Shown one piece after another: positions 1 to 63,645 of a DNA stretch of 64,000 nt (within the stretch, counting starts at the first letter, position 1; every line of letters starts with the position of its first letter). The position numbers were made by a program, and so were the translations under genes. The DNA lies in assembly GCA_030390025.1 (NCBI GenBank), contig CM059431.1, forward strand, positions 105,588,001-105,652,000, read 5' to 3'. The notes under the pieces were generated by a model. It had not been told where the DNA came from and did not search any database. It saw only the letters and a list, made by a program, of their open reading frames with translations. The stretch comes from Squalus acanthias. Taxonomy: Eukaryota.

Positions 1-434
1 TACCCAAAACTCCTTCACACAACGTTGAATCTCTCCAGAAGTCTCTCCCTCTCTCTCTCAGAATGCGTAGTTCAAAAATGCCACCAACAATAAAAGACAG
101 GAAGAGGCCCCCTTTAAATAGCGCCCCCCCCCCCCAGCCCCACAGCGATTGATAGCGTTCCAGTCTTCTGGTCGTTGGAAGCGCCAGGCAGTAAGGCAGG
201 GGGCGCCACTCAATTTCCACTACGGGGCGCCACAAGGGCGTTGCACCATGGAATGTCGTCACAATCTGCGTGCGCAGGTGGTCGCAGCGGTAAGTTTTAG
301 CGCCGCCGCACAATCTCAAGTTAAGTTCTCGAGCGGCGCAAACATCGCTGCGCCCGGGCGTTAGCGGCTTTGCGCCCCATTAGCGCCCTCTTAAGGCGCT
401 AACAGGAGGCGCAACCAAGTGAATTTTTACCCCT
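1..434 (+). mobile_element. GC-rich MITE, right part (same family as 44406-45298 and 53923-54809)
   Basis: Starts tacccaaaactccttcacac, as seen at about 54388 and in reverse at about 44815-44835; ends in TIR-like gaatttttacccc. Confidence 0.75.
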
Positions 435-699
435 TTATCCCTTAGTCGGTGCAGTTTTTCTTGACCTGGGTCATGTTAAGGTAAAAACCTATTGCAGGAT
501 TATAGAGGGGAGAGTTAGCGAGAGTTGATGAAAATGCACACAACCTGTTGTTTAACCGAACACAGCACAGGAGGAGGCGATCTGCCCCTTCACGTCTGTT
601 CTAGATATTGCTACAGCCATCCAACACACAGGAAATAGTATTTCTGGGAACAAGGTGGGGTTTCATTCATGTGCAATACTTATGCAGGGGCTGAAGCTG

Positions 700-1660
700 A
701 GATTAATGGAAACACTCATCAATGAGTGCCTGCTCCACCATATTTCTTGGCTGCACCGCTGCTTCCTTCATTGCCTCCTCTTCCTCGGCCTTCTCTTCTG
801 CTGCTGCATTAGGGACCTCCTCTTGGTCCTGCTATATGCTTACTCGTATATGTGTTGCCAAGATATACAGCAGACAGCGATTATTTTGGACAGCTTCCTT
901 GGACTAAAGAGAAGCAGCTTGACCAAAGCCGTCCAAAAAGTGGGATCTTCAATTAGGTTCCCCAATAGCGTGCTCTAGAATAATTCAGCTTGATTTATGC
1001 GCCTCATTGTGTTAAACCGAGGTCCCATTTGCTCTCTCAGGTGGATGTAAAAGATCCCCTTGGCATTATTTCGAAGATAAACAGGGGAGCTCTCCCCAGT
1101 GTCCTGGGCCAACATTTATCCCTCAATCAACATCACTAAAAAAAATTATCCGGTCATTAACACATTACTGTTTGTGGGAGCTTACTGTGTGCAAATTGGC
1201 TGCCATGTTTCCCACATTACAACAGTGACCACATTTCAAAAGTACTTCATTGGCTGTAAGGCGCTTTGGGATGTCCGGTGGTCATGAAATGGCGCTATAT
1301 AAATGCAAGTCTTTCTTTCTCACTGCTGTTCGGGGATTTTTTTTTTTATGGGGTCATCAGGCATGGCTGCAAAGGACAGCCCTGATCTTCCAGCAGCTAT
1401 CATTTCAGTCTATTTGAAGCTCCAGATAATGCAGGCATCGTGACCACAGCATTATGCAAGCGGTCAAAACCTTCCAAGCCACCACAGGGAATAGCGACCA
1501 CCTGAATGTTTATTAGAATGGAAGCGCTTCCTGTTTTCACAGGCAAAGGGGTTGATGTGAAGAACCCTGATGCTTGCATGGGTGCGATTGTCCATGCCCA
1601 GGACCCTTGGCCATCCTGCCACCCAGTAGACATCTTGTATCCTGTCCCGATGATGCCTCC
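700..1660 (-). pseudogene. Highly decayed PIF/Harbinger DDE transposase remnant, interrupted by a SINE
   Basis: Minus-strand fragments VLGMDNRTHA (cf. GAIDCTH), NRKRFHS..NIQVV, GHDACII (cf. GSCHDAFIL), HNEAH..IILEHAIG, SKIIAVCC, then an acidic tail; the order is collinear with Harbinger transposases. Confidence 0.65.
1012..1320 (+). mobile_element. Deu-domain SINE, 5'-truncated
   Basis: Matches the core and tail of the full copy at 43251-43722. Confidence 0.8.
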
Positions 1661-2227
1661 TTTACACAAGTCAAGTGATGACGTGGTTGCCCCTCGCAAA
1701 TATAGTGGGCTGGAATTTCCTCGATACAACTTACACCAAAATTAGACTCAAATTTACTCCAGTTTCTACGTGAACTTTGCAGACAGCAACTTACACCGAA
1801 ATTTCCTGAGAATCTCATTAGCATCTTCCATAACCCAAAAACCAGCGTCGAACAAATGCTAATCAGTGTAAACAATCTAGAGCCCAAGGGAAGTGTGGAA
1901 CATGCACCATCTTCCCTCTCTAAGTCCCTCTTTATCTTATTGATGTTATGAAAATTAAAGCTTGAAGCCATTAAACCATCATTTATGTATATTAAGCAAA
2001 GCATGTTTCAGAAAATGCAATTGTGGAACCACTTCACTGTTAAATGCAACAGATTCTGATGCCATAAAAAGTATTCAAAGGTGTGGGAAATATAGTGGAG
2101 GTCTTACAAAGGAGAAATTAAATAAAAATGCTAAAAAATATATATAAAATTATTGAACACCAGAAATAGCAACTTTGGCTCGCGCTGCCTAATATCATTG
2201 GTGTAAATTTACACTTTTTTAAAATTA

Positions 2228-4226
2228 GCTTATGGGATGCGGGAGTCGCTGCCAAAGTCAGTATTTATTGCCCATCCCGAATTGCCCTGGAGAAGGTGGT
2301 GGTGAGCCGCCGGTGTAGGAATATACTATATAAGGAACTCTACCTTATAAATTCTTTAAAACATGACAAACTGGGTTTTGAAATTTAGAAATATAAAATA
2401 AGGAACACCTGCCCTTCACACCGTTTTATATGGTGACCCCAGAACATCTGGAGATGAGACAAGATTCTGGAATATTACAAGCTGATGTGGCAGTAAGAGT
2501 TGCAGAGGTCGGCAGAAAATGAATAGGGATAATTAACTTGCATCAGCAGAAAACCTTAAAGGAAGTACAACTTAAAAGGGTATAAATATTGAAGTTTCAA
2601 ACGAGATAGCAGACTCGCTTTAATCGGGCAAAGCGATTCTCGACCACAGAGGCGGCTCTGTGGTCTCCAACTCTTTGTACCTTGGGGATCAAAGGTATTT
2701 GATATTGATGGATATCCTGTATAGAAAACTTTAAGAACTGTAATACTGTAGCGAAGTTAAGATTTAAAAGTAAGATTCTCTGTTAATAAGATAGTATTTT
2801 TTCTCTTTTTAGAACTGTTAACGTTGCGATTGACTGATTCACCAACTGTAAATTGCAAGTCGGTTCTTTCAATAAATCTATATATATATTTTTAGAATTG
2901 TCTCACATAAGTCTTCTGTATCAATAACACGTGCAATCAATCTCTGTACACTCTTTGGTGAAGAGTTACAGAATTCTGAAGGAGTTCTCCAGACCCTCAT
3001 AATATGCGGGACGTTACAGTCTAGCTAAACTTTATTAAAAGTGCTTTCTGGAGGACGGTAACATTTTCGGGTTGTTCCTTTCTTTTAGGGAGAGATAGCC
3101 CGGACCTTTAGACCCAATTAAGCGTCTTTAGGATTTGGCTACCTCAAACTTTAGTTGAAAGTGAACGTCTGAGAAATACGCCTAATCCGGGATAGCCCCA
3201 AAGGGGCTAGGACTAGTAAATATCCCTTCACATCTTATTGAACCGCTGCAGTCCATGTGGTGAAGGTACTCCCACAGTGCTGTTAGGGAGGGAGTTCCAG
3301 GATTTTGACCCAGTGACGATGAAGGAACAGCCGATATACTTCCAAGTCAGGATGGTGCATAACTTGGAGGGGAACTTGCAGGTAGTGGTGTTTCCATGCA
3401 CCTATTGCCCTTGTCCTTCGAGGTGGTAAAGGTCGCGGGTTTGGGAGGTGCTGCCAAAGAAGCCTTGGCGAGTTGCTGCAGTGCATCTTGTAGATGGTAC
3501 AGACTGCACCGGTGGTGGAGGGAGTGAATGCTTAAGGTGGTGCATGGGGTGCCAATCAAGCGGGTTTCTTTGTCCTGGATGGTGTCAAGCTTCTGGAGTG
3601 TTGTTGGAGCTGCACTCATCCAGGCAAGTGGAGAGTATTCCATCACACTCCTGACTTGTGCTTTGTAGATGGTGGAAAGGCTTTGGGGAGTCAGGAGGTG
3701 AGACACTCGCCGCAGAATACCCAGTCTCTGGCCTGCTCTTGTGGCCACTGTATTTATGTGGCTGGTCCAGTTAAGTTTCTGGTCAATGATGACCCCCAGG
3801 ATGTTGATGGTGGGGGATTCGGCTATGGTAATGCATTGAATGTCAAGGGGCGGTGGTTAGACACTCGCTTGTTGGAGATAGTCATTGCCTGGCACTTGTG
3901 TGGCGCAAATGTTACCTGCCACTTATCAGCCCAAGCCTGAATGTCGTCCTGAATGCGAATGGCACTGAACACTGTGCAGTCATCAGCCAACATCCCCATT
4001 TCTGACCTTATGATGGAGGGAAGGTCATTGATGAAGCAGCTGAAGGTGGTTGGGCCAAGGACACTGCCCTGAGGAACTCCTGCAGCGATGTCCTGGGGCT
4101 GTGATGATTGACCTTCAATCAGCACAACCATCTTCCTTTGTGCTAGATATGACTCCAGCCACTGGAGAGAGTTTTCCCCCCTGATTCCCATTGATTTCAG
4201 TTTTACTAGGGCTCCTTGATGCCACA
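2228..4226 (-). mobile_element. LINE (CR1/L2 group, second family), 3' portion with RT remnant, split by a foamy solo LTR
   Basis: [18 protein letters not shown] in ORF 3823-4227 and KAQVRSVMEYS in ORF 3347-3748; the sequence is continuous across 2311/3235 when compared with the copy near 10180. Confidence 0.85.
2312..3230 (+). mobile_element. Solo LTR of the endogenous foamy-like virus family
   Basis: Collinear with LTR 14645-15777; ends atatcccttCA; TATAAA at 2581 and AATAAA at 2871; no PBS follows; degenerate 4-bp TSD cgcc/catc. Confidence 0.9.
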
Positions 4227-13971: not shown

Positions 13972-14103
13972 GGGTAGATTTTCAACTTGCCACCTGTTCA
14001 AACAGTTGGCATTGTGGATCAGCCGCTAGTTATAGTTTCTACAATGATGCGGTCGATCCGCAAGGCCAGTTTCACACTCAGGTGACAAGTTGAAAATCTA
14101 CCC
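13972..14103. mobile_element. Small MITE with ~25-bp TIRs
   Basis: gggtagattttcaacttgccacctg ... caggtgacaagttgaaaatctaccc. Confidence 0.8.
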
Positions 14104-14213
14104 CATTGTTTTGTGATGTTGAAAAATCTAGGTGAAGACCAGGCTTTTCATGGTTCAAGGCCAGGAATAACAGAAAGGTTGGGCAGAGTGGGAGAGGCAA
14201 CAAAGTAAATCAA

Positions 14214-14354
14214 CACAAAAGCAAAATACTGCGGATGCTGGAAATCTGAAATAGAAACAGAAAATGCTGGAAATACTGAACAGGTCAGGCAGCATCTGTG
14301 GAGAGAGAAACCGAGTTAAGGTTTCAGGTCGATTACCTTTTTCCAGTTCTGACG
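14214..14354 (-). mobile_element. Penelope-like pLTR fragment with a short inverted end
   Basis: Homologous to 39370-39480 in reverse; 12-bp TSD aaagtaaatcaa (14202-14213, 14355-14366). Confidence 0.7.
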
Positions 14355-15137
14355 AAAGTAAATCAAGACATGGCGGTTATGTGATATTAGGCTTCATTAT
14401 TGAAAGTCTGTGGATTGAAAGACTATGAGAGTTAAGCAGTATTGAGATCCTGAGAAACAATGATTTAAGAATAGGAGATGGTGGAAAGAGTTTTAACATC
14501 TATAATGAACAAGTCATGATAGCATAATGGAAGCTCGAGAGAAATAAGAATGTTCAGAAGAGCTACTTTAGGAGTATTGCTATATATAGTGAGAGATTAT
14601 ATAAGGTGTAATGGGAGAGAGGTGTTGAAGGCAAGAGGTGAGAGTGTGAAGGAATAAGCCATATAACCTATTCAGAAAAATACACTATCTTATGAAAGAA
14701 TTCTGGCCTTATTAAAACATGACAAACTGGGTTTGGACATTTAGAAACCTAACTATGAAATAGCTATGAAAGCATTCTGGCTATTGAGATAAGATAGTTG
14801 TTGTCCCTGAAAAAATAGCCTTATTGAAACAGAAGGTGAAGGGCTCCGACAGGCTGACCTTTTGGGAACAAAACAATGGTCACCCTGGATAAGGTGTTCT
14901 AATTTAAACTTCGTAAAGATAGCACATAAGATAAGGAACATCTGCCCTCGTAAAGATGACAAAGTAAGGAACTCCTGCCGTCACACCGTTTTTATATGGT
15001 AAACTTAGAACACCTAGAGATGAGACAAGATTCTGGCTGAGGTGACTGTAAGAGTTGCAGAGGTCGGCAGAAAAATGACTAGAGATAATTAGCTTGTATC
15101 AGCAGAAAACCTTAAAGGAAATACCTCTGGAAAAGGG

Positions 15138-15143
15138 TATAAA
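15138..15143 (+). promoter_or_regulatory. LTR TATA box
   Basis: gggTATAAAtattgaa is conserved in the solo LTR (2581). Confidence 0.7.
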
Positions 15144-15430
15144 TATTGAACTCTCAAATGGGATAACAGACTCGCTTTAATCGGGCAAAGCGATTCTCGG
15201 CTTCAGAGGCGGCTCTGTAGTCTACCACTTTTTTGTACCTCGGGGATCAAATGTATTTGATATTGATGGATATCCTGTATAGAGAAATTTAAGAACTGTA
15301 ATACTGTAGCGAAGTCAAGATTTAAAAGTAAGATTCTCTGTTAATAATAAGATAGCATTTTTTCTCTTTTTAGAACGGTTAATCTTGCAATTGACTGATT
15401 CACCAACTGTAAATTGCATGTCAGTTCTTT

Positions 15431-15436
15431 AATAAA
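15431..15436 (+). terminator. LTR polyadenylation signal (candidate)
   Basis: AATAAA conserved in both LTRs (2871); an ATTAAA further downstream is an alternative. Confidence 0.55.
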
Positions 15437-15779
15437 TCTATATATTTTTAGAATTGTCTCAAGACTTCTGTATCAAAAACTCGCAAACTCAATCTCTGTA
15501 CACTCTTTGGTGAGGAGTTGCAGAATTCTGAGGGAGTTTTTCCGGACCCTCATAATATCTGGGACGTTACAGTCTAGCTAAACTTATTAAAAGTGCTATC
15601 TGGAGGATGGTAACATTCTTGGGTTGTTCCTTTAGGGAGAGATAGCCCGGACCTTTAGACACGATTAAGCATCTTTAGGACTTGGCTACCTCAAACTTTA
15701 GTTGAAAGTGAACGTCTGAGAAATACACCTGATCCAGGGTAGCCCTAAAGGGGCTAGGACTAGTAAATATCCCTTCAGT

Positions 15780-15797
15780 TGGTGACCAATGTGTGTG
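15780..15797 (+). promoter_or_regulatory. Primer binding site, degenerate tRNA-Lys1,2
   Basis: TGGTGACCAATGTGTGTG lies 2 nt after the LTR CA; 12/18 match to TGGCGCCCAACGTGGGGC, and two mismatches are CpG to TpG. Confidence 0.75.
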
Positions 15798-16089
15798 TCA
15801 ATGAGTTGATACAGAACCCTACACTTATATTTATAGCTATATCCATCTCGTAGATTGTTAAGTATAGAAGGAATGTTTTACTGACAGTGGTACTACGACC
15901 CAGATTTAAGTCTCTAGAGATGACAAGTCCCTGATCAGGCCTTATATGACTTAAATCAGAACTCCCTCAATATACCATTGAGGTCTAGAAATTTCTTATA
16001 AAGTTCATACTAAATCCTAACTGAGGTTAGGTCCTGACGAAATGGCAAACCCTGTTGGAATTGGCCAAGTCTTTTTATTAGGAAATTCA

Positions 16090-16576
16090 AACAATTGCTA
16101 CCATCAAGTCATTTACTGTGATGGATCATCAATGACAATTAAAAAAGGGACATCCCAACAATCCTGGGATGGGGATAGTAGTAGGGACTTTGAGATTCCT
16201 ATTCTTTTTATCCAGGAGAATTACTGTCCATACCCCTTGGCCATAAGACAGCACCATATGCTGAAGCCGCAGCACTACGTATGCTTTAGAAAAGGCAGAC
16301 CCTATTAAACCCACTTTAATCTGTACAGATAGTGATAATTGTAAAAGAGGATATAACCAAGATCTAGTTTTCTGGGAACAAACAAACTTTACCAATCATA
16401 AGGGTAAACCCATAAAACATAAGTCATTGTGGAAAGACATTCTCCGTTCAAGGATGGAGAAACAGAATTGTCAGGTGATTCATGTAAACGGGCATACCAC
16501 TGGGACAGTACACTCAAAAGGAAACAGTCTTGCAGACGAACAAGCGAAACGTTCGGTCTGCATGACACCCCCTTGA
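16090..16576 (+). pseudogene. pol: Foamy-like Pol RNase H domain, frameshifted
   Basis: VIYCDGSS, NPGMGIVVG, SIPLGHKTAPYAEAAAL, ALEKA, ICTDS, FTNHKGKPIKHKSLWKDI, HVNGH, HSKGNSLADEQA; these parallel PFV FYTDGSA, NAGMGIV, SIPLGNHTAQMAEIAAV, ITDS, KKPLKHISKWK, GNALAD. Confidence 0.9.
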
Positions 16577-17735
16577 GAGTGGCCTGCCAATATTAGTGTT
16601 ATCACTAGGGCAGAACGGGCAGCTAATCAAGAGGAGGAACTGATTCAGCTATTAGACCCAACAAAAGAGAATCCACCAGGATATCCGTCAAAGTACTTTT
16701 ACTCGGAAACCCCTACTGGTATTGTGCTAGTTAAGTTGCCCAAGGGAAACCGAGAGGTACCCACAAGACACAAACGAGAACAGCTTGTAAAAGAAGCTCA
16801 CGAGGGCATAGGTCAAGCATATTGTGGTGCCAAAACAACATTCTGCAAATTGACTCCCTTATATTGGTGGCCAGGTATGCTTAAGGCCTGTAAAACATAC
16901 ATGGCAAATTGTGAGCCATGCAATTTAACCAATAAGTTATCTCTAATTAAGCCATCACCATTGGCTCCTGTGAAAGCTGATGAACCAATGGGAAAATTCT
17001 TTATTGACTTCATTGGACCACTTCCCCCGTCTTTGGGATTCAGACATGTTCTCGTTTGTGTAGATGGATGCACTTCCTTCTGCTGGCTGGTTCCCACAAA
17101 AACTGTTTCAGAAAACGTACTCGCCAATGCTATTACTGACATAATTACTGTAGCTGGTGCACCCAAAATCTTACACTCCGTTAAAGGCGGAGCCTTTGTC
17201 TCCAAGCTCTTCAAAGACTACTGCGAACAAAGGGGGATTGGGTTAGAGCATAACACACCACGTCATCCACAATCAGCAGGGGCTGGTGGAACGTTAAAAA
17301 CCAGGAAGTAAAAAAGCTATTGGTCAAACTGTTGAGAATCAGGGGAAATAAGTGGACCACCGTCATGCCGGAGGTACAGCTATCACTTAATAATGTGCCT
17401 GCATCTGCATCAGGGACAGTGTCCCCTAAAACTCCATATTATCTGATGTATGGGGTTGAGATGCATACACTGCTTACCCATGGTTCTTTTATTGCCTCTA
17501 CACTCTCTGATTCCTTGACCCGACAGCGACAGTTAGATTTTAAAAAAGTAACAGAGGAGATACATCAAACTGCTCAGAGGATAAGGGAGACAAATAGGCA
17601 GAAAAAATTGACAAACAAAGTATTGCAACCCCTAGCAGGAGGATGGGTGCAGGAAAAGAAGTTCGAGCAAAAACCTGGTTTAAGACCCAAGTGGAAAAAA
17701 CCTGTTCAAATACGTTCCATTATTAACGAAAGAAC
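16577..17735 (+). pseudogene. pol: Foamy-like integrase (NED, HHCC, core, part of CTD), disrupted
   Basis: ELIQLL..PGYPSKYFY, LYWWPGM, CEPC, KFFIDFIGPLPPSLG, VLVCVDG, HS(V)KGGAF, TPRHPQSAG/LVERKN after two +1 shifts at about 17280-17296, VQLSLNN, WVQEK..LRPKWKKP. Confidence 0.93.
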
Positions 17736-17837
17736 TAGGATTCGGCTACCTCAAACTTTAGTTGAAAGTGAAAGTCTGAGAAATACGCCTGATCTGGGGC
17801 AGCCCTAACAGGGTTAGGACTAGTAAATATCCCTTCA
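17736..17837 (+). repeat. 3' LTR remnant (U5 end only)
   Basis: 102 bp matching 15676-15777, with 10 mismatches by manual count. Confidence 0.9.
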
Positions 17838-18072
17838 AGAGAAGATTGGCTGGCAGATGACGAGCTTTCTCTTGTATCCTGTCGAGGAGTGCTGGAGTAG
17901 AACTGGAAGAACCTCTCCAAATATGGAAGCAGGATGGATGGACTTTATAGAGAAGTAGGAATTCTTCAACAGAAAAGAAATTTTTAAGCACTTAGAGGAA
18001 AGCAAGTTTCTTGGAGGCAACTTTAGCCATGGAGGAGATAAGGGGGTTTCAATTATATGGGGAGAAACTTAT

Positions 18073-18957
18073 AAGCCGCGATTTTGCCAGCGCTCAGAGG
18101 GCGAGTTTGGAGGCGGGTCAGAGGTTAAAGTCATTTTGATTGACGGCGGGTTTCGCACCCACCATCAACCTGCCTCCAAACAACCTTCCCAAGTGTCGGG
18201 TCCCCAATTTGCGAATGGACCAGACACCGAACGGCAGGAAATGGATTAAAGGCAATTAACTGCCCATTACCAGGTACTTAACAGTAGTGTTCAGCCTGTT
18301 TTTCGATCTTCCCACTTCTGGGTCGGGTTTCACGATGTCCGGACACCACACCAGGTAAGTGTAGCGTATTGCGAGTCTGGTCTCATGTTTGTGAAAAGAT
18401 GACAGCTGCAGAAGTGGTGTGAAGGATGCAATGTTGCACATGGTGAGTTTCAGAGCAAAGAAAATGTTGGTTACTGCATTTTTAATACATATACAGATTT
18501 CTTTAGCTTACAAGTTTTTAAATCCAACTGTATGTCCAGTGCCACCTCATTGGAACAACCTCTCTCACCAGTGACAGATCGCTTCTGTCATCTCACCTGC
18601 AGCTGCCATCTATTCCAGCATATGGAGGGAGTCATTGGAGAGCCTGAGTGCAAGAGTTCACCTTTGTGCAGTGATTGTCAGTGTTTTCAGCACCTCAATG
18701 CTGTCAAACACTGAAAAATCAACTATCAAAATAAAATTGTGCGTGGTCCCTTTAAGGAAACCGGCAGATGATGCATCATCAAATGACATCGTCAGACCCG
18801 CTTCCTGTTAATTGGTCGGTAACCCCGCAGGGCTGGCTCAACAAGGTCAATCAAGGGAAAATCACGTTTGTGCAGCGGAGGCAGCTGGGGGATGGGACTG
18901 GAAGCCGGAAACCAGCTGACCCGCACCCATCCTGACACCGAGGCGAAAATCGTGGCC
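18073..18957 (+). mobile_element. Harbinger-type MITE (copy in opposite orientation at about 46670-47530)
   Basis: TIRs gccgcgattttgcc / ggcgaaaatcgtggc; shares internal ctcaccagtgacagatcgcttctg. Confidence 0.7.
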
Positions 18958-59065: not shown

Positions 59066-59730
59066 TTAACAGGGTCAATTTGGGAGGTGGACGTAGTGAA
59101 GGGTAACAGTTAATGTTGTTCTGTTGTCAGAGCCGGAGGCTCCCATTAAAAGAGCTGTTCACTGATCATTAGAACCACCCACAGCCATTATAAAGGTGGC
59201 TGTAGAGGTCCCGGAGGGATTTAAACACAACGGGGCAGAAATTCCGTTCCGTACGGGTGTGTACACCGGTGTCGGGAGTGGAGAGTGTGACGGTACAGTA
59301 AGTATTTAAACTCACTTGCGCGGGCTTTTTTTTTTTTGCAGAGGCCGGTGTCGGGAGTGGAGAGAGCGACAGTACAGTGAGTATTTACACTCACTTTCGC
59401 TGGCTTTTTTTTCCAGAGGCTTACCAATCTCGCAGACCGGCGGCGGCGTTGCAGAGCCATGTCACGATTCAAAAAGTGACGCGGGCAAGAGGAAGCAGCT
59501 GATTGGGTGAGTACGGCCAGGTGAGTATTTACACTACTCTATAGTTTGACAGTTAAGGTTAATAGTTTATAAAGTTTAGAAGGTCTTAATTTTGTGGTTA
59601 TAGTTTCGAAGGTCTCAGTTGTGTAGCGGGGAGTGCGAGAAAACAAGGGCCCTTGACTATCATTTAATTGTAGTGTAATTTGTGGTATTGATTTGATTTA
59701 ATTTAATTTAAATTAATTAAAGGGTAAGTC

Positions 59731-60667
59731 ATGGCAGCACAGCTCAGCCCAGTGGCAAGCATCTCCTGCACTATGTAGGAAATCAGGGACACTTCCTGTG
59801 TCCCTGATGACCATGTGTGCGGGAAGTGTATCCAGCTGCAGCTACTGGCAGCTGGAGCTGCGAATGGATACATACTGGAGCATTTGCGATGCTGAGGACG
59901 TCGTGGATATCACGTTTAATGAGTTGGTCACACCGCAGGTAAAGGCTGCACAGGCAGGAAGGGAATGGGTGACCGCCAGGCAGAGTAGTAGGCGCAGGCA
60001 GGTAGTGCAGGGGTCCCCTGTGGCCATCCCCCGCTCAAACAGATATACTGCTTTGGATATTGTTGAGAAGGATGGCTTATCGGGGGAAGGCAGCAGCAAC
60101 CAACTTCCTGGCACCATGGGTGGTTCTGCTGCACAGGACGGGAGGAAAAAGAGCGGGAGAGCTATAGTGATAGGGGATTCTATTGTAAGGGGAATAGATA
60201 GGCGTTTCTGCGGCCGCAAACGAGACTCCAGGATGGTATGTTGCCTCCCTAGTGCAAGGGTCAAGGATGTGTCGGAGCGGCTGCAGGGCATTCTGGAGGG
60301 GGAGGGTGAACAGCCAGTTGTCGTGGTGCATATAGGTACCAACGATAGAGGTGAAAAATGGGATGAGGTCCTAAAAGCTGAATATAGGGAGTTAGGAGGT
60401 AAATTAAAAAATAGGACCTCAAAGGTAGTAATCTCAGGATTGCTACCAGTGCCACGTGCTAGTCAGAGTAGAAATAGAAGGATATTTCAGATGAATACGA
60501 GGCTAGAAGAATGGTGCAAGGGGGAGGGATTCAAATTCCTGGGACAGTGGAACCGGTTCTGGGGGAGGTGGGACCAGTACAAACTGGACGGTTTGCACCT
60601 GGGCAGGACCGGGACCGATGTCCTAGGGGGAGTGTTTGCTAGTGCTGTTGGGGAGGGTTTAAACTAA
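59731..60667 (+). pseudogene. CR1 ORF1 (Cys-rich N-terminus plus SGNH esterase domain), with stop and frameshift
   Basis: SCTM*..DHVCGKC, then AIVIGDSIVR, VVVHIGTND, DGLHL. Confidence 0.9.
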
Positions 60668-60668
60668 A

Positions 60669-63645
60669 ATGGCAGGGGGTTGGGAACATGTGCAGGGAGA
60701 CAGAGGAAAGGGAAGACAGGATAGAAGCAAAAGACAGGAAGGAGAAAAGCAAAAGTGGAAGTCAGAGAAATCAAGGGTGTAAATCAAACATGGCCACAGT
60801 AAACAATAATTCTAAAAGGTCTAAGAGTGTTAAAAAAAACAAGTCTGAAGGCTTTGTGTCTTAATGCGAGGAGCATTCGTAATAAGGTGAATGAATTAGC
60901 TGTGCAAATAGATGTAAACGGATATGATTTAATTGGGATTATGGAGATATGGCTCCAGGGTGACCAAGGCTGAGAATTCAACATCCAGGGGTATTCAATA
61001 TTCAGGAAGGACAGGCAAAAAGGAAAAGGAGGTGGGGTAGCATTGCTGGTTAAAGAGGAGATTAACACAATAGTAAGGAAGGATATCAGCTCTGATGATG
61101 TGGAATCTGTATGGGTAGAGCTGAGAAATACCAAGGGGCAGAAAATGTTAGTGGGAGTTGTATACAGACCCCCAAACAGTAATGCTGAGGTTGGAGATGG
61201 CATTAAATGGAAAATTAGAGATGCATGCAATAAGGGCACAGCAGTTATCATGGGTGACTTTAATCTACATATAGATTGGGCTAACCAAATTAGTAACAAT
61301 ACTGTGGAAGAGGAATTCCTAGAGTGTATACAGGATGGTTTCCTGGACCAATATGTTGAGGAACCAACTGGAGATCAGGCCATCTTAGACTGGGTATTAT
61401 GTAATGAGAAAGGATTAATTAGCAATCTTGTTGTGCGAGGCCCCTTGGGGAGGAGCGATCATAATATGATCGAATTCTTCATTAAGATGGAGAGTGAAGT
61501 AGTAGTTGACTCAGAGACTAGGGTACTGAATTTAAATAAAGGAAACTATGATGATATTAGGCGCAAGTTGGCTGGGATGGATTGGGGAATGTTACTTAAA
61601 GGGTTGATAGTGGATAGGCAAAGGCAAACATTTAAAGATCGCATGGATGAACTACAGAATTTGTTCATCCCTGTTTGGCATAAAAATAAAACAAAGAAGG
61701 TGACTCAACTGTGGCTAACAAGGCAAATTAGGGATAGCATAAGATCCAAGTAGAGGGACATATAAATTGGCCAGAAAAAGCAGCAAACCTGAGGATTGGG
61801 AGCAGTTTAGGATTCAGCAAAGGAGGACAAAGAGATTAATTAAGAGGGGGAAAATAGAGTATGCGAGTAAGCTTGCAGGGAACATAAAAACTGACTGTAA
61901 AAGCTTCTATAGATATGTGAAGAGAAGAAGATTGGTGAAGTCAAGCGTAGGTCCCTTGCAGTCAGAATCAGGGGAATTTATAATGGGGAACAAAGAAATG
62001 GCAGACCAATTAACTACATACTTTGGTTCTGTCTTCACAAAGGAGGACAAAAATGAACTCCCAGAGATGTCGGGGAACATAGGCTCTAATGAGAGTGAGG
62101 AACTGAATGAAATCAGTATTTGTAGGGAAATGCTGTTAGGGAAATTGATGGGATTGAAGACTGATAAATCCCCAGGGCCTGATAATCTACATCCTAGGGT
62201 ACTTAAGGAAGTGGCCCTAGAAATAGTAGATGCATTGCTGGTCATCTTCCAAAATTCTATAGACTCTGGAACAGTTCCCATGGATTGGAGGGTAGCTAAT
62301 GTAACCCCACTATTTAAAAAAGGTGGTAGAGAGAAAACAGGGAATTATAGACCGGTAAGCCGGACATCAGTAGTGGGGAAAATACTAGGGTCCATTATAA
62401 AAGATGTAATTGCAGAGCACTTGGAAAACAGTGACAGGATCGGACAAAGTCAACATGGATTTACAAAAGGTAAATCATGCTTGACTAATCTACTGGAATT
62501 TTTTGAGGATGTAACTGGTAGAATAGATAAGGGAGAACCAGTGGATGTGGTGTATTTGGACTTTCAGAAGGCTTTCGATAAGGTCTCGCATAAGAGATTA
62601 ACGTGCAAAGTTAAAGCACATGGGATTGTGGGTAAGGTACTGACTTGGATAGAAAACGGTTTGGCAGACAGGAAGCAAAGAGTTGGAATAAACTGGTCTT
62701 TTTCAGAGTGGCAGGCAGTGACTAGTGGGGTACCGCAGGGATCGGTGCTAGGACCCCAGTTATTCACAATATATATTAATGATCTAGATGAGGGATGTAG
62801 ATGTAATATCTCTAAGTTTGCAGATGACACAAAGCTGGGTGGGCGTGTTGCTGTGAGGAGGATGCAGAGAAACTCCAATATGATTTGGACAGGTTGGGTG
62901 ATTGGGCAGATGCATGGCAGATGCAGTATAATGTGGATAAATGCGAGGTTATCCACTTTGGTGGCAAAAACAGGAAGGCAGATTATTATCTGAACGGCAA
63001 TAGATTGGGAAAAGGGGAAGTGCAATGAGACCTGGGTGTCCTTGTGCACCAGTCGCTGAAGGTAAGCATGCAGGTGCAGCAGGCGGTTAAGAAGGCAAAT
63101 GGTATGTTGGCCTTCATAGCGAGAGGATTCGAGTACAGGAGCAAGCATGTCTTGCTGCAGTTGTACAGGGCCTTGGTGAGACCCCACCTTGACTATTGTG
63201 TGCAGTTTTGGTCGCCTTATCTGAGGAAGGATGTTCTTGCCATGGAGGGAGTGCAGCGAGGATTCACCAGACTGATACCTGAGATGGCAGGAATGACGTA
63301 TGGAGAGAGATTGGGTCGATTAGGCTAGAGTTTAGAAGAATGAGAGGGGATCTCATTGAAACTAATAAAATTCTAACAGGACTAGACAGACTTGATGCAG
63401 GAAGGCTGTTCCCGATGGCGGGGGAGTCCAGAACCAGGGGTCACAGTCTAAGGATAAGGGGTAAGCCATTTAGGACAGAGATGAGGAGGAGTTTCTTCAC
63501 CCAGAGAGTGGTGAACCTGTGGAATTCTCTACCACAGAAGGCAGTTGAGGCCAATTCATTAAATATATTCAAGAAGGAGTTAGATATATTTCTTAAGGCT
63601 AAGGGGATCAAGGGATATGGGGAGAAAGCAGGGACAGGGTACTGA
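60669..63645 (+). pseudogene. CR1 ORF2 (APE endonuclease plus reverse transcriptase), disrupted
   Basis: [50 protein letters not shown]; stops at about 60971, 61751 and 63027, and frameshifts at about 62850 and 63325. Confidence 0.95.

Follow-up and report, generated by a model that had tools for sequence, protein, structure and literature searches.

An internally deleted element in a Squalus acanthias contig is probably a dead copy of an abundant foamy-like endogenous retrovirus family

Foamy viruses serve to date the origin of retroviruses, and among their hosts cartilaginous fish are the least well described. What kind of element, then, lies at positions 14645-17837 of the 64,000-nucleotide stretch of Squalus acanthias contig CM059431.1 analysed here (the window, at its full length)? 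A first-pass annotation, made from the letters of this DNA, described it as an endogenous foamy virus provirus in a probable shark genome. The reading reached here, to which we give a probability of about 80% for identity and structure taken together, is that the element belongs to a foamy-like (Spumaretrovirinae-related) endogenous retrovirus (ERV) family abundant in its host, of which it is a dead copy that has undergone two deletions. The interest of the locus lies mostly in that family, the single window copy being an ordinary dead repeat. The shark-type host proposed by the annotation agrees with the RAG1 core, which is 91% identical to that of Heterodontus, 90% to Rhincodon, 89% to Scyliorhinus torazame and 88% to one skate and two ray species, whereas bony vertebrates do not exceed 80%.

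Comparison of the window copy with Pfam profiles returned RNase_H (3.5e-12), Integrase_H2C2 (1.6e-12) and rve (5e-09), together with a weak match to SH3_11 that falls under its cut-off, and tblastn with a longer family Pol reveals that only Pol residues 561-1109 are spanned. When the N-terminal part of the integrase was searched against all chains of the PDB, the integrase of prototype foamy virus (PFV) was matched at 2e-47 with an alignment beginning in the N-terminal extension domain, while the Ty3 integrase reached 1.5e-07 and HIV-type cores lay above 0.1. The C-terminal part of the window integrase matched the same PFV protein at 5e-12, with the motif LRPKWKKP aligned to LRPRWHKP; the annotation had named both the extension and this motif. 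Taken together, the two aligned pieces cover PFV integrase residues 10 to ~358; identity to the integrase part of the PFV/HSRV (human spumaretrovirus) Pol is 40% (87/219), and the nearest solved structures for the window RNase H are foamy protease-reverse transcriptase (PR-RT) proteins at 4e-17.

Inspection of the same remnants reveals extensive damage. The four acidic residues of the RNase H on which the annotation remarked can indeed be read in the DNA; they are, however, spread over three frames, with the reading frame shifting between ~16173 and ~16265 and an in-frame TGA at 16574-16576 closing the remnant. The integrase has a frameshift near 17281, at which the catalytic Glu is lost, and lacks its last ~44 codons; Y replaces the second zinc-binding His, and V replaces the second catalytic Asp (HSVKGGAF versus HSDQGGAF). 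The HHCC/DDE-type residues damaged here are intact in a longer copy. The window copy now has no retroviral function, and its 5' long terminal repeat (LTR) could be at most a stray promoter. A near-length protein search with the window integrase, covering predicted proteins of 134-427 amino acids, gave no match at 1e-20, and the family is therefore absent from predicted protein sets of that length.

A 1153-residue family Pol, taken from a longer copy in the same genome, is 37-39% identical, across 92% of its length, to the Pol of foamy viruses from simians and cats and of human-derived ones (E values 1e-223 to 1e-204). Next come a related protein of 1687 residues (P0008, 35%) and a newt gene model (31%), followed by gypsy-like proteins at no more than 31% identity over no more than 38%. 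A scan of all 1.84 billion representatives with the same query gave the same order, with none above 41% identity. The annotation had named a maximum-likelihood tree of RNase H-integrase as the check on its claim. In the careful maximum-likelihood tree built here (34 rows, 1056 columns, LG+C20 with posterior mean site frequencies), whose topology equals that of the quick tree and in which six rows fill less than half of the columns and six have an odd amino-acid composition, the window fragment, with X at its breaks, groups with two copies from its own genome (support 100/99) inside a foamy and foamy-like clade of 19 rows (100/99). Gypsy-like rows, used as outgroup, and non-foamy retroviral rows fall outside this clade.

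Where does the family sit within the clade? Two ray-finned-fish-type rows and a Callorhinchus milii row are basal, and the remaining 16-row clade (99/94) is made up of salamander rows and a 12-row group (93/89). An elasmobranch set (95/94), comprising the present family, P0008 and a reverse transcriptase (RT) fragment from S. torazame, has as its sister group (100/99) the mammalian foamy viruses together with Pelodytes frog rows. The family thus groups with the tetrapod foamy set (99/94) and apart from C. milii, and this placement, nearer to mammalian foamy viruses than the salamander, ray-finned-fish or chimaera elements are, departs from the branching order of the hosts and is relevant to the model of co-speciation. 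Two further observations concern other rows. The Pelodytes ibericus gene models P0142 and P0251 are sister to the mammalian foamy viruses (100/99), closer than the salamander elements. The S. torazame gene model P0153 fuses a foamy-like RT that shares 41% identity with the family to a PRDM-type PR/SET domain; this chimera probably arose as an artefact of gene prediction across an inserted ERV.

Genome-wide searches, also proposed by the annotation, recovered longer copies with gag, pol and env, but no accessory open reading frame (ORF) after env in the two copies that reach that far. Longer copies run LTR, leader, gag, pro-pol, ~0.7-1 kb and LTR, for a total of ~8.7 kb, and the overall layout with env included is LTR, Lys1,2 primer site, gag, pro-pol, env and LTR. 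Pfam domains in family copies comprise Gag_FV_central (1e-13 and 8e-13, in two copies), Spuma_A9PTase, RVT_1, RNase_H, H2C2, rve and SH3_11, with RNase_H (PF00075) found in the family Pol besides RT_RNaseH. Gag_spuma_N (PF03276) found no match in family copies, the controls being equally silent. The Foamy_virus_ENV profile (PF03408) has 11 genome matches above its cut-off at ~7 loci, covering profile positions 120-969, and those on contigs C23 and C4 lie directly downstream of family integrase matches. The env-bearing copies are ~93% identical to one another. Most copies lack nearly all of env, and the short 3' region of these maps patchily onto the env-bearing copies, from which it follows that the env-less form is a deletion product. 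The copy carrying the 1153-residue pol frame (L051+L052, G000:C8:110022500-110038500, minus strand) lacks a 5' LTR, has a ~6.1 kb short-period tandem array immediately upstream of gag, and has a pol frame without the N-terminal half of the protease.

The annotation's boundaries, namely TG...CA ends, an AGAG duplication and an LTR of ~1.1 kb, are borne out at 14645-17837, with a 5' LTR of 1133 bp. A search of the 3.71-Gb assembly with this LTR gave 5729 first-look candidates (such counts, here and below, are rough lower bounds and not copy numbers), and all 40 that were scored span ~1-1133 at 92-94% identity; with the integrase as query, 150 of 150 scored matches show 83-93% amino-acid identity. 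Internal copies of the family number in the hundreds and LTR candidates in the thousands, and the rarity that the annotation attributed to endogenous foamy viruses does not apply to this genome. Nineteen LTR loci were inspected: at 14 a solo LTR sits between identical 4-bp repeats (L007, L008 and L013 among them being one duplicated locus with shared flanks), three have a one-base difference in the duplication, one is non-matching, and one is the 5' LTR of the provirus L057, which has two full LTRs with TGTG on both sides. A 4-bp duplication is thus the rule in the family, which makes the AGAG of the window a product of the family integrase. Since gammaretroviruses and epsilonretroviruses also produce 4-bp duplications, this feature is supportive only.

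The primer binding site gives a similar picture. The Lys1,2-like site claimed by the annotation is retained at 12 of 18 bases in the window, where the differences include CpG-type transitions, and in 28 other copies it has 3-6 mismatches to the tRNA-Lys1,2 motif used for scoring. The best of these 28 match at 15 of 18 bases with the first 14 unbroken, and in four copies the site reads TGGCGCCCAACGTG followed by TGTG. Lys3, Pro and Trp primer motifs fit worse, with 7-12 mismatches. The LTR pairs of L057 and L058 have Kimura two-parameter (K2P) divergences of 0.049 and 0.045 (547 bases for L058), those of two longer copies are 96.6-96.8% identical, and the 102-base pair of LTR ends in the window gives 0.107 with a wide error. 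If a rate of 1e-9 substitutions per site and year is assumed, the other copies would be roughly 16-25 million years old and the window copy older. The two LTR ends of the window (15676-15777 and 17736-17837) differ at 10 of 102 bases, and the 3' remnant is still 97-98% identical to many other LTR copies; either a faster decay of the 5' LTR end or different histories of the two ends could account for this unevenness.

One hypothesis to be weighed against a foamy identity is that a Ty3/gypsy LTR retrotransposon, or else an ERV of non-foamy type (class I or an ERV-L-like class III), lies here and is foamy-like in its integrase only. The pair Integrase_H2C2 and rve is common in gypsy elements, the Ty3 integrase is itself weakly matched in the PDB search, and the tree holds no references for ERV-L, nor for CoeEFV, NviFLERV, DrFV or ERV-Spuma-Sca, for which unnamed or gene-model rows stand in. 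Against this, the foamy integrase is matched some 40 orders of magnitude better than that of Ty3, an added RNase_H domain, a spumavirus Gag central domain, an A9 protease and a foamy Env are all present, and gypsy and non-foamy retroviral rows stay outside a foamy clade supported at 100/99. On the integrase matches, the Gag, protease and Env domains and the tree, a gypsy or non-foamy identity was rejected, and the chance that it is nevertheless correct appears minute. That the family is foamy-like, as the annotation held, is supported by the Pol phylogeny, by the spumavirus Gag and Env domains that sister copies carry, by the Lys1,2 primer site and by the 4-bp duplication.

How closely does the family resemble the exogenous mammalian foamy viruses (PFV and other simian foamy viruses, SFV, and feline foamy virus, FFV)? 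It shares with them the Pol order PR-RT-RNase H-integrase, the N-terminal extension of the integrase, a Gag central domain, a Gag in which no Cys-His box (CCHC) was found, a foamy Env, the Lys1,2-type primer site and the 4-bp duplication. Unlike them it is endogenous and present in high copy number, its Env has ~730 amino acids where that of PFV has ~990, and the window copy has only an LTR, the leader, 19 gag codons and RNase H-integrase left. Two traits of the mammalian viruses were not seen in the copies read. Mammalian foamy viruses make Pol from a separate spliced mRNA, in a frame different from that of gag. In L055, by contrast, a single open frame of 658 amino acids takes in both the Gag central domain and the protease, and in L053 (4998-8068) the gag and pol frames, as read from ORF end sequences, abut with one frameshift offset. 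No tas/bet-like ORF was found after env either: the gap of ~500-700 bp between the end of env and the LTR holds no shared ORF of at least 100 amino acids in the two decayed env-bearing copies that could be compared. As side observations, L055:4284-6257 has no stop between the Gag central domain and protease-RT, and the related protein P0008 has ~520 residues upstream of its protease within a single ORF.

If the family is foamy-like, what became of the window copy? In L057 and L058, positions 1-3092 of the element form one unbroken match at 92-94% identity, and in the longer copies the sequence from element position 1455 on sits ~2.4-3.4 kb downstream of the leader. The window copy carries the junction that we call type A, at 16099|16100, where gag codon 19 continues in frame into the RNase H at YHQVIYCDGSS, and it therefore lacks gag past codon 19, the protease and the RT. 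This junction is not private to the window: a 161-nt probe across it is contiguous in all 40 scored places, on many contigs, among 644 candidates. At the other junction, named type B, gag codon ~39 runs into DGSSMT, and its probe is likewise contiguous in 40 of 40 scored places at 95-100% identity. Type A has 22 RNase H-specific bases that are missing from type B, so that neither can be derived from the other by simple deletion and the two junctions must be independent. Derivatives of both types retain the LTR, the leader, the gag start and ~1.65 kb of 3' pol. Among 29 integrase loci (L022-L050), eight are type A or hybrid, 14 are type B, three have RT upstream and four are unclear; and equal 300-bp probes from one copy gave 184 and 229 first-look candidates for gag, 148 for RT and 473 for integrase. 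The hybrid junctions (YHQVIIFDGSS), seen in L029, L032, L039 and L049, suggest recombination between type A and type B.

The 3' end of the window copy tells of another event. With a probe over its integrase-to-LTR junction (17680-17800), one of 40 scored places spans the junction, the window itself; the junction is thus private to this copy and reflects a second deletion after insertion, in which the integrase end, what was left of env, the polypurine tract and ~1030 bp of the 3' LTR were lost. A complete provirus was accordingly rejected on the strength of the 102-bp 3' LTR, the gag-RNase H junction, the frame breaks and the private integrase-LTR junction. What the annotation called a provirus is instead a 3.2-kb dead, non-autonomous deletion derivative without gag past codon 19, protease, RT, env or polypurine tract, and its LTR and cis elements, which had been thought unusually well preserved, are reduced by the truncation of the 3' LTR, the loss of the polypurine tract and the decay of the primer site. 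The parts that remain are listed in Table 1; by its position the leader would be part of the foamy cis-acting sequence CAS-I, and a function of that kind is what we infer for it.

Table 1 Parts of the foamy-like element and its flanks, mapped by reading positions 14000-18600 and from the repeat listing of the window.
Feature	Position	Strand	Evidence
5' target-site duplication AGAG	14641..14644		read directly; identical four bases at 17838-17841
5' LTR, 1133 bp, TGTGAA...CCTTCA	14645..15777	+	TG...CA ends; own-genome matches spanning ~1-1133
TATA-like TATAAATA inside 5' LTR	near 15138-15145	+	by eye only
AATAAA inside 5' LTR	15432-15437	+	by eye only
Primer binding site TGGTGACCAATGTGTGTG, decayed tRNA-Lys1,2 type, 12/18 bases	15780..15797	+	two bases after LTR
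5' leader, untranslated, 244 bp	15798..16041	+	contiguous with leaders of full-length copies, L057, L058
gag start: ATG + 18 codons, MANPVGIGQVFLLGNSNNC	16042..16099	+	tblastn against gag ORF of longer copy
RNase H remnant, Pol residues ~561-720, in-frame fusion to gag	16100..16576	+	Pfam RNase_H 3.5e-12
Integrase: N-terminal extension, zinc domain, catalytic core, most of C-terminal domain	16577..17735	+	PFV integrase matches
3' LTR remnant: final 102 bp, ends CA	17736..17837	+	direct repeat of 15676-15777, 90%
3' target-site duplication AGAG	17838..17841		read directly

Did the derivatives spread as mobile elements, or could the junction-bearing copies have arisen by segmental duplication of one deleted provirus? 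The latter is known to have happened locally, in that L007, L008 and L013 share their flanks, and L029, L032, L039 and L049 are alike in their features and lie on small contigs. The scored junction copies are nevertheless scattered over many contigs, the TGTG duplication of L057 is unlike that of the window, and the solo LTRs are flanked by differing 4-bp duplications, all of which makes duplication a very improbable explanation for the whole set. From their structure and dispersal, the derivatives were probably mobilised in trans by coding members of the family. By this mechanism, derivative RNA would be transcribed from the LTR and packaged, and would be reverse-transcribed from the tRNA-Lys1,2 primer, with autonomous family members supplying the proteins in trans for a derivative unable to copy itself. 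Integration would then leave the 4-bp AGAG duplication. The private 3' deletion came after insertion, and point mutations and frameshifts have ruined the RNase H and the integrase. In mouse, ETn elements are mobilised in trans by MusD and are not known to keep any pol sequence. The shark derivatives would resemble the ETn/MusD system as internally deleted LTR elements that outnumber their coding relatives and depend on the proteins of these; unlike ETn, they retain an RNase H-integrase segment, and do so twice independently. A difficulty for mobilisation in trans is that the gag-pol copies sampled have LTRs only 77-85% identical to the derivative LTR, with pol at 91-93%, and that no helper with a matching LTR was identified among them.

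A further question is why the 3' part of pol was kept. According to a review (PMC5035957), foamy viruses, alone among retroviruses, need a cis element of ~1.8 kb in 3' pol (CAS-II) besides CAS-I in the leader and gag start. As described there, foamy transfer vectors built on CAS-I, CAS-II and CAS-III keep the LTR, the leader with the gag start, ~1.6-1.8 kb of 3' pol and the 3' end, with gag, PR-RT and env removed (PMC5035957), and the derivatives are like them in what they keep; they differ in being natural deletion products, in that no central polypurine tract copy was found, and in that the role of the retained segment is putative. By analogy, we tentatively suggest that the ~1.65 kb of 3' pol may have been kept as a packaging and Pol-loading RNA element like CAS-II. 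A bolder and rather doubtful extension would be that two independent derivatives, each of at least 40 copies, that keep vector-like CAS-I and CAS-II parts are natural evidence, if the retention was selective, of a pol RNA element already present in fish-infecting foamy viruses, and would mean that a foamy-type virus can spawn parasitic 'mini-genomes' in a germ line, with the placement of the family implying an old cross-class jump. Whatever its standing, the pair of amplified deletion forms offers a comparative handle on the foamy-specific packaging rule.

The principal alternative is that the retained 3' pol is meaningless and reflects chance deletions in elements that happened to amplify, or a region prone to template switching. 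This is a serious contender, if somewhat short of an even chance. It gains from the weak similarity between the gag and RNase H breakpoint regions (~13/25 bases, counted by hand), from the TGA that type B shares on both sides of its junction, and from there being two derivative types only, which is few for inferring selective retention of 3' pol. It does less well with the positions of the breakpoints, since, out of 3.3 kb deleted, the breakpoints of the two types are no more than ~61 bases apart in gag and 22 bases apart in the RNase H, with the fact that both types reached at least 40 scored copies, and with a microhomology of at most one base at the type A junction. A quite different proposal is that RNase H-integrase was kept because it was expressed, as a fusion of the Gag N-terminus, RNase H and integrase from the gag ATG that would aid integration or shield the RNA from nonsense-mediated decay. 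Both independent junctions are in frame with the gag ATG, and some derivative copies have open frames of 362-526 amino acids from it; yet not one of the 22 derivative copies inspected keeps a complete frame, breaks occur at several points in the window copy, and two in-frame junctions would be expected by chance about once in nine. This coding explanation seems unlikely. For the CAS-II-like RNA element the reckoning is also mixed, for besides the small number of events, the frame of both junctions fits a coding reason as well as or better than an RNA reason. The CAS-II of PFV holds a copy of the polypurine tract, while the 3' polypurine tract of the family (…AAGAGGGGTG ahead of the LTR in L057) is not repeated within the retained pol segment, in which the sole partial likeness is AAGAGGAGGAA at 16629-16639.

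Foamy-like ERVs in cartilaginous fish are already known, as the annotation stated: published reports cover C. milii (PMC5512871, PMC4422223) and a catshark (PMC10699275), which weakens the annotation's suggestion of an undescribed elasmobranch lineage. The shark family is one more family, or one more host, of a known kind, with more of its genes present and with a shortened form that is out of the ordinary. For the C. milii element, pol only is given as detected (PMC5512871); the catshark element, ERV-Spuma.N-Sca of Scyliorhinus canicula, comes from a screen of 12 chondrichthyans and has many loci (PMC10699275, supplement table S3), the same source describing the ERVs of sharks and jawless fishes as having 'no Gag or Env domains'; and a 2018 survey took in three cartilaginous fishes (PMC6001957). 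Like CmiFLERV/CmiERV and ERV-Spuma.N-Sca, the present family has a foamy-related pol in a chondrichthyan genome, and unlike the chondrichthyan elements as described in those sources, it has both Gag and Env detected. Its Pol shares only 34% identity with a C. milii gene model and 41% with the S. torazame one in the RT part, and by the RAG1 value of 89% to S. torazame its host does not belong to Scyliorhinus. The family is set apart from ERV-Spuma-Sca by the published description and not by sequence comparison, so that it could be a relative of the catshark ERV-Spuma family. Amplified, non-autonomous or env-less foamy-like deletion derivatives did not appear by title in a limited literature search. 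With recognisable gag, pol and env, and with a primer site and duplication that can be checked on many copies, the family makes a better elasmobranch reference.

Some minor observations remain. Sequencing runs of nine coded organisms (A-I) contain 5-42% of the sampled 31-mers of the element, and this sharing indicates that near-identical family sequence is probably common to several species. Upstream of the element, positions 13972-14103 hold a 25-nt inverted repeat whose arms are 96% complementary and separated by 82 nt, and ~14190-14340 resembles a short interspersed repeat. Elsewhere in the window, a long interspersed nuclear element on the plus strand at 59717-62993 has an ORF1 resembling a GDSL esterase (1.8e-10) together with endonuclease (5e-10) and reverse transcriptase (1.5e-25) matches, and a strong GC skew extends over 60-64 kb.

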